Shown here piece after piece: positions 45,184 to 48,023 of a stretch of DNA of 64,000 bases; the stretch's first letter is position 1; each line of letters begins with the position of its first letter. The stretch is from Candidatus Nanoarchaeia archaeon (lineage in GTDB: Bacteria; Patescibacteriota; Microgenomatia; Woykebacterales; RBG-16-39-9b): NCBI GenBank assembly GCA_036514715.1, contig DATBWR010000016.1:42368-106367 (forward strand). Direction: 5' to 3'. The notes beneath the pieces were generated by a model. That model made no database searches. It was not told the DNA's origin and worked only from the letters and a program-made list of their open reading frames with translations. The position numbers and the translations under genes were made by a program.

Positions 45184-47274
45184 TTGCGCATGGATAAAGT
45201 TTACGAACACAAAAATATTGAGGAAAAATGGTACTCTTTTTGGGAAAAAGAGGGTTTTTTTAAACCTAGTTCTTCCAAGAAAACTTTCACGATCATCCTC
45301 CCCCCACCTAATGCCAACGGCCGGCTGCATATTGGCCACGCTATGTATGTGATTGAGGACATTATGGCCCGTTACCATCGCATGTGTGGTGAAGCAACTC
45401 TCTGGCTACCTGGAGCAGATCATGCTGGCATTCTCACTCAAGTGGTTTACGAACGTGAGCTGGAAAAGCAAGGTAAAACCCGACACGATCTTGGACGAGA
45501 AAAGTTTTACGAAGAAACTTACAAATTTACTCAAGGTAGTAAAAAACAAATGTATGAACAACTCCGAAGAATGGGTTTTTCTCTAGATTGGTCCCGCGAG
45601 AAATTTACTCTAGACCCGAAAATTTCTCAGGCAGTTTATAAAACTTTCAAAATGCTCTACGATGACGAACTTATCTACCGCGGCACGCGGATGATTAACT
45701 GGTGCCCACGTTGCGCCACAGTTTTGTCTGATTTGGAAGTTAATCACGTTGAAAAAGAATCTAACCTCTGGTTTATTAAGTATCCTGTTAAAGACACTGG
45801 ACAATTCATTACCGTTGCCACTACCCGTCCGGAAACTATGCTTGGTGATACTGCCGTGGCAGTTAATCCAGACGATAAGCGCTATAAAAATTTAGTTGGG
45901 AAAACCGTTGTTTTACCACTTACAAACCGAGAAATTCCGATTATTGCCGATAGCTTTGTCGATTCTGAGTTTGGAACTGGAGCGGTTAAAGTTACCCCAG
46001 CCCATGATCCCAATGACTACGAGATCGGTGAGCGCCATAAGTTAGAAAGTGTCCAAGTGATTGGTTTCGACGACAAAATGACTAAGGAGGCAGGAAAATA
46101 CTCCGAATTGGATAAATACACTGCTCGCAAACAAATTGTCTCCGACTTAGAAAAACAGGGCCTTTTGGATAAAACTGAGCGTCATAAAAGCAGCATTGGG
46201 GTTTGTGAACGCTGCGGCACTGTGGTCGAACCACAAATCTCCAAGCAGTGGTTTGTAGCAGTTAATAAAACTGGTAAATCTGGTAAGAATTTAGCTAAAG
46301 ATGCTCTCAAAGCTGTCGCAGAAAAACAGATAAAAATCATCCCCGAGAGATTTGAAAAGATTTACTACAATTGGATGGAAGATTTGCATGATTGGTGCAT
46401 ATCGAGGCAGCTGTGGTGGGGTCAGCAAATTCCCGTTTGGTACAAAGGTGAGGAAATTCATGTTGGCGAAGATTCGCCCGGTGAGGGTTGGCACCAAGAC
46501 CCAGATACTCTGGATACTTGGTTTTCCTCCGGTCAATGGCCTTACACAACTCTAGGCTGGGGACAAAAGGATGATAGTGATTTCAAGCGTTTTTACCCAA
46601 CTACAGTCATGGAAACCGGCTACGATATTCTCTTTTTCTGGGTAGCCCGCATGATCATGCTTGGAATTTACTCTACTGACAAAGTACCTTTTGAAAATGT
46701 TTATTTACACGGTTTAGTTCGTGACGAAAAGGGTCAGAAAATGAGTAAAAGTAAAAACAACGTTATTGACCCACTGGTAGTTGCCGATCAATACGGGGCG
46801 GATGCGGTCCGCATAGCACTAGTTTTTGGAACGGGGGCAGGTAATGATGCCAATATTGGCGAAAGTAAAATAAAAGGTATGCGCAATTTTACTAACAAAC
46901 TCTGGAACATCGGTCGCTATATTATTGATATGAAACCGGAAAAAGTTCGCGCAAAAGCTGAGATGAATAAGGATGATAAATTGATTCTGGAAGAACTAGC
47001 TAAAACCCGCAAAATAGTAACTGAAGCTATTGAAAACTACAGGTTTGGCCAAGCAGCTGAAGAGCTCTACGAGTTTGTTTGGCATAAGTTTGCTGACAAG
47101 TACATAGAGATGAGTAAAAACCGCCGTAGTGAGGCTCAGGCGACCTTAGAGAAGGTCTTTGAAGAAAGCTTGTGCTTGCTTCATCCCTTCATGCCGTTTA
47201 TAACTGAGGAGTTATGGCAGAAATTACCCCACGAAGGGTCTTCAATCATGATTAGTACATGGCCGGGAAAGTAA
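45184..47274 (+). CDS. valS: Valyl-tRNA synthetase, short form lacking the C-terminal extension
   Basis: [14 protein letters not shown] (HIGH), KMSKSKNN, an editing-domain-sized insertion. Ends shortly after [10 protein letters not shown]. Confidence 0.85.
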   Translation: [696 protein letters not shown]

Positions 47275-47300
47275 ATATCCGAAGTTACAGAATGCTTTAG

Positions 47301-47390
47301 CTGTCTATAACTGAGGATCTCTGGCAAAAACTTCCCAACAAACAAGGCGAATCGATCGTGGTTTCCGAATGGCCTAAAGCTCAAGGATAA
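47301..47390 (+). pseudogene. Orphan diverged duplicate of the valS 3' end (LSITEDLWQKLPNKQGESIVVSEWPKAQG*), no start codon
   Basis: Aligns at the protein level to the valS C-terminus [24 protein letters not shown]. An in-frame TAG lies immediately upstream. Confidence 0.7.
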
Positions 47391-47803
47391 AGCTTCAAAA
47401 ACTCGTCGGGTGTCACGATTTTAATCCCTCGAAACTCTTTCAATTCCAGTAACCCTTTGTCGCCAGTCACAATAAAATCGACCTTTCCTTCAACTGCTGC
47501 CTCTAAAACTCGGTTATCATCTTGATCTTCAAGAACAGCGATCTGCTCTCTTGGGTTAAGTACTACAGCATTTTTACGTATTAAATTTAAAGACTTGTCA
47601 ATCTTCTGGTCGTAAAAACCGAATTTTTTAACTAAAACGTCTGCAAGCTCCGCTAGCAAAACTTCTGAAGTGAGGGCTTGAACTTCTTTACTAAGAACTT
47701 TTTGGAAAATAGTGCCGGGCTTACCAGCGAAAATTACAGCGGAGATAAAAATATTGGTGTCGAGTACAACGCGTAATTTTTTAACGGCCGTGGCGGTATT
47801 CAT
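47381..47803 (-). CDS. PIN-domain toxin (VapC-like)
   Basis: VVLDTNIFIS...acidic PIN residues. 140 aa. Overlaps the upstream RHH gene. Confidence 0.75.
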   Translation of the reverse strand: MNTATAVKKLRVVLDTNIFISAVIFAGKPGTIFQKVLSKEVQALTSEVLLAELADVLVKKFGFYDQKIDKSLNLIRKNAVVLNPREQIAVLEDQDDNRVLEAAVEGKVDFIVTGDKGLLELKEFRGIKIVTPDEFLKLYP

Positions 47804-48023
47804 GCACTAAGCGGTTAACGTCTTCCTCGGATTTTATTCCCATTTTCTTGGCAACCTCGCGACCATATTCTCTGAGACTTTGCCACTCTTCCATATTTTC
47901 GATGTAACGTCTTGTTACCTCACGGATTAACTCACTGCGGCTACGTGCTTCAGTTTCGGCTTGCTTATCAATTTTTTCTAAAAGGCTTTTAGGAATGGAG
48001 ATGTTAATTGTCTGGGTTTTCAT
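47781..48023 (-). CDS. Ribbon-helix-helix (CopG/VapB-like) antitoxin
   Basis: 80-aa RHH-like N-terminus (INISIPKSLLEKIDK). 23-bp overlap with the PIN gene. Confidence 0.7.
   Translation of the reverse strand: MKTQTINISIPKSLLEKIDKQAETEARSRSELIREVTRRYIENMEEWQSLREYGREVAKKMGIKSEEDVNRLVHEYRHGR

Follow-up and report, generated by a model that had tools for sequence, protein, structure and literature searches.

The 3′ end of the valine-tRNA ligase gene, valS, occurs twice in the 64,000 nt stretch of contig DATBWR010000016.1 analysed here (the window, whose positions serve as coordinates unless another locus is named). The in-frame tip of valS, copy A, is followed by a short spacer and by a second, orphan tip, copy B, which adjoins a convergent pair of toxin-antitoxin (TA) genes of the PIN and ribbon-helix-helix (RHH) families. 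Copy B is the genuine last 25–29 codons (~85 nt) of a second, related version of valS. The best reading of the locus is that it is the joint of two diverged Woykebacteria haplotypes, formed by one homologous crossover and one illegitimate joint. That copy B and the PIN/RHH cassette were imported together from a relative is proposed tentatively, with a probability of roughly 0.45. The parts of the locus are as follows.

45184–47274, + strand: valS (valine-tRNA ligase), 696 aa with TTG as start codon, 694 aa with the ATG at 45190
47200–47274, + strand: copy A, the in-frame valS tip, one codon under the clade norm
47275–47300, + strand: spacer between tips A and B, holding TCCGAAGTTACAGA (47278–47291), with an in-frame TAG at its end
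47301–47390, + strand: copy B, the orphan valS tip, LSITEDLWQKLPNKQGESIVVSEWPKAQG and stop; clear valS homology at 47307–47375
47381–47803, − strand: PIN_3-family toxin gene, 140 aa (PF13470, E = 9e-22)
47781–48023, − strand: RHH (CopG-type) antitoxin gene, 80 aa (PF01402, RHH_1, E = 3e-9)
48262–49026, − strand: rplY (ribosomal protein L25/TL5; PF01386 and PF14693), the convergent neighbour of valS

The orphan valS tip and its relation to the in-frame tip

The window is from a Woykebacteria-like member of the Patescibacteria. Its valS matches the Pfam families tRNA-synt_1 (E = 6e-133) and Anticodon_1 (E = 2e-31), and the closest valyl-tRNA synthetase (ValRS) proteins carry the source label ‘Candidatus Woykebacteria’. 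It is of the short form of the candidate phyla radiation (CPR) and stops just after ‘WP’, as do 119 of the 119 listed relatives, within a few residues. A hidden Markov model (HMM) of the tip was made from the C-termini of 111 ValRS relatives, the window's own sequence being left out, and was compared with the 2502 stop-to-stop six-frame peptides of the window. The valS gene itself is found at E = 9e-19 and copy B at E = 8e-13, with the next best peptide at E = 0.58; the resemblance of copy B to valS is not a chance match. With the terminal 80 aa of valS as query, tblastn finds a match in the following 4 kb at E = 5e-7 (run on locus L001, whose 47100–48300 sequence is that of the window). The A/B pair does not appear at E<0.01 in a nucleotide self-BLAST of the 64-kb window, and thus the significance of the match rests on the protein-level comparison.

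A first-pass annotation, made from the sequence alone, had described an orphan frame that repeats the valS 3′ segment, with no start codon and an in-frame TAG upstream, and had placed its stop within the convergent PIN gene. These points are upheld. Copy B has no usable start codon, a TAG stands in frame right before it (47298–47300), and its stop (47388–47390) overlaps the 3′ end of the PIN gene by 10 nt. The 33 bp gap given in that annotation is approximate, the distance from the valS stop being 26 nt to the L codon of copy B and 32 nt to the homologous ATA (Ile) codon. Codon-aligned over ITE..WP, the two copies are 68% identical in nt (66 aligned nt), within the ~65–70% first estimated, and 68% identical in aa, with a one-codon indel. 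The A–B homology begins abruptly at 47307 (possibly at about 47293); the spacer is without valS homology, and conserved flanks are present on both sides.

The only sequence shared at the joint is an identical 12-nt core common to A and B, TATAACTGAGGA. This bears on the possibility that variants of two strains or species were joined by the assembler. In favour of it, the contig was assembled from a metagenome, and the ValRS fragment P0241 shows a suspicious internal duplication. However, the exact 47100–48300 sequence is present in four assemblies from four samples, obtained with different assemblers and pipelines (ENA k141 contigs, Logan, JGI), 12 nt are far under any assembler k-mer, and the same layout is found in the 846-kb contig of locus L088. 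An assembly artefact is hence given hardly any weight.

Important is the nature of the differences between the two copies. Eleven nt differences lie in synonymous codon pairs, AGT<->TCC for Ser and TTA/CTC and TTA/CTT for Leu among them, and the 10 non-synonymous ones are mostly conservative. The coding sense of copy B is undecayed, its stop is at the usual place, and it scores 54.0 bits with a close-clade tip HMM, compared with 44.8 bits for copy A. Copy B also has the clade-specific extra codon (LPNKxGES), whereas copy A has the general bacterial form LPH.G.S. In BLASTN the valS tip of locus L136 matches copy B (74% over 70 nt) and gives no match for copy A. The undecayed, synonymous-rich divergence and the higher HMM score of copy B thus point to two long-functional alleles that were joined recently. 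Purifying selection acted on A and B in separate lineages, and copy B was functional until recently. Copy B is accordingly allelic or xenologous, and a past recombination at the valS 3′ end, as first suggested, is recorded in the sequence.

These data do not agree with the description of copy B as a tandem duplicate, in the sense of a local copy that later diverged. An old duplication by slippage or unequal crossing-over, followed by drift, would account for the adjacent position and direct orientation of the copies, and a duplicated tip of a NYN gene, 93% identical, is present in the same window. However, neutral drift to 32% difference should destroy the coding sense of copy B, which instead fits the profile better than copy A. 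The normal position of its stop, the mostly synonymous differences with a switch between six-fold Ser codons, and the clade-specific extra codon, present in B and not in A, also speak against it. The tandem-drift explanation was rejected for the undecayed state of B and its synonymous-rich differences, and is very improbable.

A functional repeat was considered as well, either as a template repeat of a diversity-generating retroelement (DGR) or as an alternative C-terminus that recoding would make accessible. In CPR genomes DGRs are frequent, and they have an orphan copy of a gene 3′ end placed downstream. The 21 mismatches are not adenine-specific, however, with A in copy B at 5 and in copy A at 7. 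Pfam scans covered the slot genes (those between valS and rplY) and the other window open reading frames (ORFs) of at least 90 aa, and no reverse transcriptase gene was found among them; the RVT_3 match at 51242–51661 is an RNase H gene, syntenic in all relatives. The mismatch spectrum and the lack of a reverse transcriptase gene in the scanned ORFs led to rejection of the DGR explanation. Recoding is opposed by the frame of the orphan, which is out of the valS frame in the window and in the valS frame in L088, with intervening stops in both. A functional repeat is the least credible of all the explanations, and local duplication, assembly artefact and DGR carry very little probability even when taken together.

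The valS–rplY interval and its toxin-antitoxin cassette

The gene order NYN - tsaD - valS -> <- rplY - 115-aa gene - epimerase is conserved, and the rplY–valS synteny is kept in every relative examined. The interval between the two convergent genes was compared in about a dozen loci, with the following content.

L128, L130, L131 and L132: 15–19 bp from valS stop to rplY stop, empty
L089/L090 and L091: apparently empty, with rplY homology starting ~90 nt past valS
L085 and L086: unrelated small genes, over 2.4 and 2.3 kb respectively
L087: a single gene, over 1.2 kb
L136: 0.9 kb, without called genes
Window: 987 bp, with spacer, copy B, PIN, RHH and hairpin element

The valS–rplY interval is a hotspot of cargo turnover with a known empty state. 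The comparison of the regions downstream of valS, which the first-pass annotation had proposed, thus yields a mixed picture, the slot being empty in some relatives and differently filled in others. The slot genes of L085, L086 and L088 have no Pfam match, and the one of L087 has only weak matches below threshold (ELP3_N, DUF2325). With no Pfam identity for these genes, a ‘TA hotspot’ is not established at those four loci.

Other elements of the interval are listed here.

48058–48030, − strand: TA promoter TTGACA-17-TACAAT (promoter scan 11/12), its −10 hexamer ending 6 nt from the ATG
48021–48037: palindrome CATACAAAGATTGTATG, over the −10 hexamer and start codon, read from the sequence
48051–48072, + strand: imperfect direct repeat of the spacer end, AAGTTTGTCAATGATTTAGC versus AAGTTACAGAATGCTTTAGC at 47281–47301
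48100–48284, − strand: hairpin, small RNA (sRNA)-like element, 3′ of rplY, with its own promoter at 48284–48256

The hairpin element is the native right border of the slot. It folds at −50.2 kcal/mol (z = −6.0) as a hairpin ~115–150 nt long, and is 72–75% identical in L085 (~4610–4745), L086 (~8160–8290) and L136 (~5825–5965); the consensus consists of a hairpin and U-run with 2 compensatory pairs. Its promoter, TTGACA-17-TATAAT with TG, is of the sigma-70 type (scan 12/12). At its apex the window version carries an additional 14-nt GC palindrome, CCGCCAGCTGGCGG. An Rfam search of 43000–50000, hairpin element included, gave no match at E ≤ 1. Since this border is kept in the subclade, the lineage-specific DNA extends from 47275 to about 48100.

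The TA genes had been called a VapBC-like PIN/RHH pair, and the Pfam matches given above bear this out. The antitoxin gene lies upstream of the toxin gene, with a 23-nt overlap, and residues D15, E52, D93, D96 and D115 of the PIN protein are invariant among 17 homologues. With a consensus promoter and conserved catalytic residues, the pair looks intact, as far as sequence can tell, and the palindrome CATACAAAGATTGTATG is likely its operator, by prediction. The antitoxin gene upstream and overlapping, the PIN acidic residues and the promoter palindrome are shared with VapBC-type type II TA systems. The window toxin differs in being a PIN_3 protein (PF13470), whereas canonical VapC belongs to PF01850, and in having a nearest homologue of only 55% identity. 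The cassette has 40–42% GC, the level of the genome, and this fits a related donor.

The position of the cassette is of consequence. It lies outside both valS repeats, downstream of orphan tip B, and thus cannot be what is left of an element inserted between attL and attR; it either arrived with copy B or was resident, already attached to it. In the first-pass annotation the TA module was proposed as surviving addiction cargo. What stands is that the module is cargo specific to the lineage, in a slot found empty in six related lineages, and what the geometry excludes is an element remnant between the repeats.

A further direct repeat, 47281–47301 versus 48051–48072, matches in 15/22 positions (10/11 in its core) and encloses copy B, PIN, RHH and the promoter. 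It may represent two parental versions of the intergenic sequence downstream of valS, which is suggestive only, the estimated probability of a chance occurrence being ~0.04.

Proposed joining of two haplotypes and direction of transfer

The haplotype joint would have come about as follows. One haplotype would carry valS with tip A and a short downstream intergenic sequence, up to about 47300, and the other valS with tip B, overlapping the convergent PIN/RHH cassette by 10 nt. DNA from a relative with the TA cassette directly behind valS would be taken up, and its right end would recombine homologously in the conserved sRNA/rplY flank. The left end would lie ~85 nt inside valS, past most of the conserved block, with homology too short for a crossover. 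It would instead be joined illegitimately ~27 nt after the recipient valS stop, possibly at a CTTTAGC micro-homology, and the product would be valS(A), spacer, orphan tip B, PIN and RHH, in that order. A fragment that included more of valS would recombine cleanly, without an orphan as its trace, and tandem tips that resemble each other would be lost by recombination between the copies, so that only divergent A/B pairs would survive. Such survivorship would account for the shared start of the orphans at one conserved block, and for an atypical A beside a typical orphan.

Several observations are in keeping with this series of events. The nearest relatives of the window and of L088 lack the cargo in question, so that one event bringing both orphan and cargo is more economical than two. 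The joint falls in a harmless intergenic stretch, and the overlap of the copy B and PIN stops is like that of a compact native gene pair. A candidate for the micro-homology is CTTTAGC at 47295–47301, which resembles both the valS block (CTTCATGCC) and 48066–48072. We infer the direction of transfer, the uptake route, the illegitimate joint and its micro-homology, and a role of toxin addiction in the preservation of the product.

A comparable arrangement is present in a second Woykebacteria genome, L088, whose ValRS is 61% identical to that of the window. Its valS ends at 6285 and an orphan frame, ..SITEELWQRLPKKKGESIMVSPWPD and stop, occupies 6328–6426 (E = 2.8e-13). Within 6286–6906 the orphan is followed by two overlapping minus-strand ORFs of 60 and 78 aa, and then by rplY. 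The two small ORFs could be an undescribed TA pair. The slots of the nearest relatives of L088 are empty, and thus one event explains orphan and cargo there too.

The spacers of the window and L088 have sequences in common. Both start with the motif TCCGAAGTTNCAGA after the valS stop; in the form TCCGAAGTT[A/T]CAGA it begins 3 nt past the stop in the window and 5 nt past it in L088, with 13/14 positions identical. Both also have GAAT-N5-AGC-NN-TCT ahead of the ATAAC of the orphan. No exact copy of the motif was found in any other fetched locus. A two-edit version is present in L085, 29 nt past the valS stop, and the empty site of L130 contains GAAGTTTCA; the motif is absent downstream of valS in L133, L135 and L137, which have A-like tips. 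The L088 spacer also displays an imperfect 16-nt inverted repeat. Neither spacer has a significant fold (z = 0 in the window, z = −1.2 in L088). The spacer was also considered as an orphan rplY 3′ end, and this was rejected, as its reverse translation (..FQFLSTLAL and stop) is unlike L25 tails.

A number of results weigh against import of copy B with its cassette, and most of them concern the affinities of the two tips. Over compared segments of only 66–69 nt, whose identities are hence noisy, copy B is 78, 71 and 68% identical in nt to the tips of L086, L085 and L087 (gene-wide values 75, 75 and 72%), and copy A 65, 68 and 61%. In L088 the orphan is 76–78% identical to the L128 and L130 tips and the in-frame tip 62–67%. 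The log-odds of copy A (close-clade over distant HMM) is 3.7 bits, under that of all 29 leave-one-out clade members, and near-minus-far identity, taken over 113 sliding windows, reaches its minimum in the tip window 661–684. The orphan tip thus looks vertically inherited in both the window and L088, and on this point the reverse direction is simpler. Sliding profiles, at 72–75% identity, show no identity step along valS and none in the right flank, and no haplotype with valS(B) and the TA pair but without A was found. The closest PIN homologue among 5.8 billion proteins searched is 55% identical, so that the donor is not traceable through the cargo. The spacer motif shared with L088 has E = 27 in a global search and is notable by position only, and the four assemblies that contain the junction may all sample one population. 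The survivorship explanation may account for the atypical A.

Taken alone, the tip identities would favour A as the imported copy and B as the native one. Under this reverse direction, tip A and the spacer were imported, and copy B and the TA pair were resident. The incoming DNA, from a strain without the TA pair, would have consisted of tip A and ~27 nt downstream, with a homologous crossover in or upstream of the conserved block. Its far end would have been joined illegitimately just upstream of the resident tip, whereby B was orphaned and the TA pair kept; a clean double crossover would delete the TA pair and be counter-selected by the toxin. In favour of it, the window and L088 each have an orphan tip typical of the clade and an in-frame tip that is not, and B has the clade extra codon where A has the general bacterial form. 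A neighbor-joining (NJ) tree of the ValRS body only places the window as sister to P0002/P0005, with an ancestral tip of the B-like type, and the geometry is that of C-terminal displacement at Rhs and type VI secretion system (T6SS) effector loci. However, the reverse direction needs two events, a clean gain of the TA pair and then displacement, and gives no reason for an illegitimate junction at the conserved block of an essential gene in two genomes. The atypicality of copy A is also modest, at the 5th–10th percentile of 30-codon windows. Nor was a donor tip more than 68% identical in nt to A found, the tips of L085, L133, L135 and L137 being 64–68% identical. Against 1.84 billion representative proteins, the best tips are 82–85% identical to tip A and come from many phyla, LPH.G.SIM being a general bacterial form, and no specific donor could be singled out among the matches. 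A word-indexed protein search with a 44-aa tip gave no candidates. On balance the reverse direction is possible but rather unlikely.

The first-pass annotation had also invoked site-specific integration. In this reading the locus would be a decayed integrase scar at the valS 3′ end: attP would have borne tip A, B would be native at attR, and the body of the element would have been deleted to 26–57 bp. Consistent with it are the diverged direct repeats with the identical 12-nt core TATAACTGAGGA, the empty sites in L128, L130, L131 and L132, and the presence of TCCGAAGTTNCAGA and GAAT-N5-AGC-NN-TCT in the window and L088 alike, as expected of conserved att arms. In a Chloroflexi metagenome-assembled genome (L015, JACPQL010000026, 7643–8400), moreover, a TA pair lies exactly between a valS tip and a 78%-identical orphan tip that has an internal stop. 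The pair consists of a DUF4258 toxin gene (7739–8023) and a gene for an MqsA-like zinc-finger antitoxin (7990–8247). The locus came from a contig scan with full ValRS, which was saturated by the universal FWVARMIM motif and returned ValRS loci of at most 57% identity.

Site-specific integration is not sustained in the window, however. No integrase, resolvase, excisionase or transposase was found in the slot or the scanned ORFs, the sole trace of a mobile element being an IstB fragment at 43458–43604; the repeats are only 26–32 nt apart, with the cargo outside. Two lineages would each have had to lose nearly the whole body of the element, independently of one another, and the A tips of the window and L088, both of them element-borne in this reading, share only 67% identity, with an indel between them. 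No valS-tip or attP-like copy turned up when 2.9 million viral contigs were scanned with three patterns. The integrase scar is considered quite unlikely. Improbable to a similar degree is a broader proposal, that the conserved block of valS is the target of a dedicated, so far unrecognised tip-replacing integration module, in CPR and other bacteria, with TCCGAAGTTNCAGA past the replaced stop and GAAT-N5-AGC-NN-TCT ahead of the orphan as its conserved arms. Small TA cassettes would, by this proposal, use it to enter the valS–rplY slot, and the window, L088 and L015 would be three decayed insertions of a single class of mini-element and not separate accidents of recombination, for which the probability is equally low.

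Doubled valS tips were also seen outside these loci. Among the best 150 matches to tip A in the library of 1.84 billion proteins, 5 had two matched stretches. At least four of the five, P0241, P0243, P0280 and P0315, are unrelated ValRS fragments of public metagenomes that repeat the HPFMPFxTEExWQ block or the tip, in whole or in part. The doubled fragments suggest recurrent rearrangement at the conserved block, or else assembly artefacts. In L135, a distant CPR genome, the 174-bp valS–rplY gap has CCTATAACCTGAGG (~2800–2835), one indel from the valS core TATAACCGAGGA, and this may be a heavily decayed orphan tip, judging from the match.

Other features of the window and comparison with known systems

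A second duplication of a gene 3′ end, noted in the first-pass annotation, is indeed present on the + strand of the window at 42942–43670. The last 13 codons and stop of the NYN gene (42942–42984) are repeated at 43628–43670, with 93% identity over 43 nt in the self-BLAST. The copies enclose an insert of ~650 bp (42985–43627) with a 96-aa ORF and an IS21 IstB C-terminal fragment (43458–43604; Pfam IstB_IS21, E = 1.7e-5). About 500 bp more (43671–44167), with 55%-GC patches and a GC-rich hairpin, precede tsaD; the NYN–tsaD distance is 0–22 bp in L128, L130, L131 and L132.

The distance between tsaD and valS is 32 nt in the window (region 45151–45184). In a comparison of the window with L088, L128, L130–L132 and L136, an AAA_33/zeta-toxin-like kinase gene lies between the two in most relatives; it is not present in the window, nor in L087. 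A replication-origin-type cluster of dnaA, dnaN and recF is found ~6 kb from valS (region 53654–62778) and is followed by a type-IV-secretion-like set, with a TraG/VirB4-type P-loop ATPase (57414–59225) and a PrgI-family protein (62161–62778). A Type ISP restriction-modification enzyme is encoded at 4958–8035. The self-BLAST also displays a 68%-identical tandem repeat (893–1107 versus 1220–1431) within a 1013-aa ORF at 107–3148, and an inverted 68% match (17988–18216 versus 27405–27177) between the 5′ ends of two UvrD-type helicase genes.

The valS locus preserves, like a fossil, an exchange of DNA between diverged lineages of an uncultured bacterium of a candidate phylum, with two alleles of the tip of an essential gene side by side and one probably illegitimate joint between them. 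TA cassettes are among the cargo that lands in the valS–rplY interval of Woykebacteria. Orphan tips can be used for donor tracing and for the timing of transfer in genomes without genetics, and annotators should note that short ‘pseudogene’ tips beside aminoacyl-tRNA synthetase genes are real. No new kind of system is revealed; the significance would be greater if the shared spacer and flank were the arms of a dedicated valS-targeting element.

Among known systems, homology-facilitated illegitimate recombination (HFIR) is described for natural transformation (de Vries & Wackernagel 2002; Prudhomme et al. 2002; Meier & Wackernagel 2003, as referred to in PMC5361080). The window has in common with it one homologous anchor and one illegitimate joint, foreign DNA beside a conserved gene, and partial gene fragments at the joint, with no need for a recombinase gene. 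It differs in that we infer the uptake route and the micro-homology of the joint. To our knowledge HFIR has never been demonstrated in CPR bacteria.

One-sided homologous and illegitimate recombination that leaves orphaned 3′ regions is described in PMC5361080, and C-terminal displacement is known from Rhs, contact-dependent inhibition (CDI) and T6SS effector-immunity loci (Jackson et al. 2009; Kirchberger et al. 2017, PMC5361080). A constant body, a current tip, an orphan tip that starts from the last conserved block and a small linked cassette are found in these loci and in the window alike. However, those loci encode polymorphic toxins and the window gene a housekeeping aminoacyl-tRNA synthetase, for which a swap of tips has no evident benefit, and a single orphan is found in place of an array.

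Integrase islands rebuild the 3′ end of their target gene, as in tRNA- and tmRNA-gene islands and SGI1 in trmE. Diverged 3′-end direct repeats with a short core and an empty site in relatives are shared with the window, which differs from the islands in its lack of an integrase in the scanned ORFs, the short distance between repeats, and the cargo outside them. Integration hotspots reportedly also occur between conserved core genes (Oliveira et al. 2017). The valS–rplY interval resembles these in being empty in some lineages and filled with unrelated cargo in others, and differs in that it is described from a CPR lineage and from about a dozen loci only. The feature is thus of a known kind, being a gene remnant or the scar of a recombination, located at an integration hotspot beside a mobile TA cassette.

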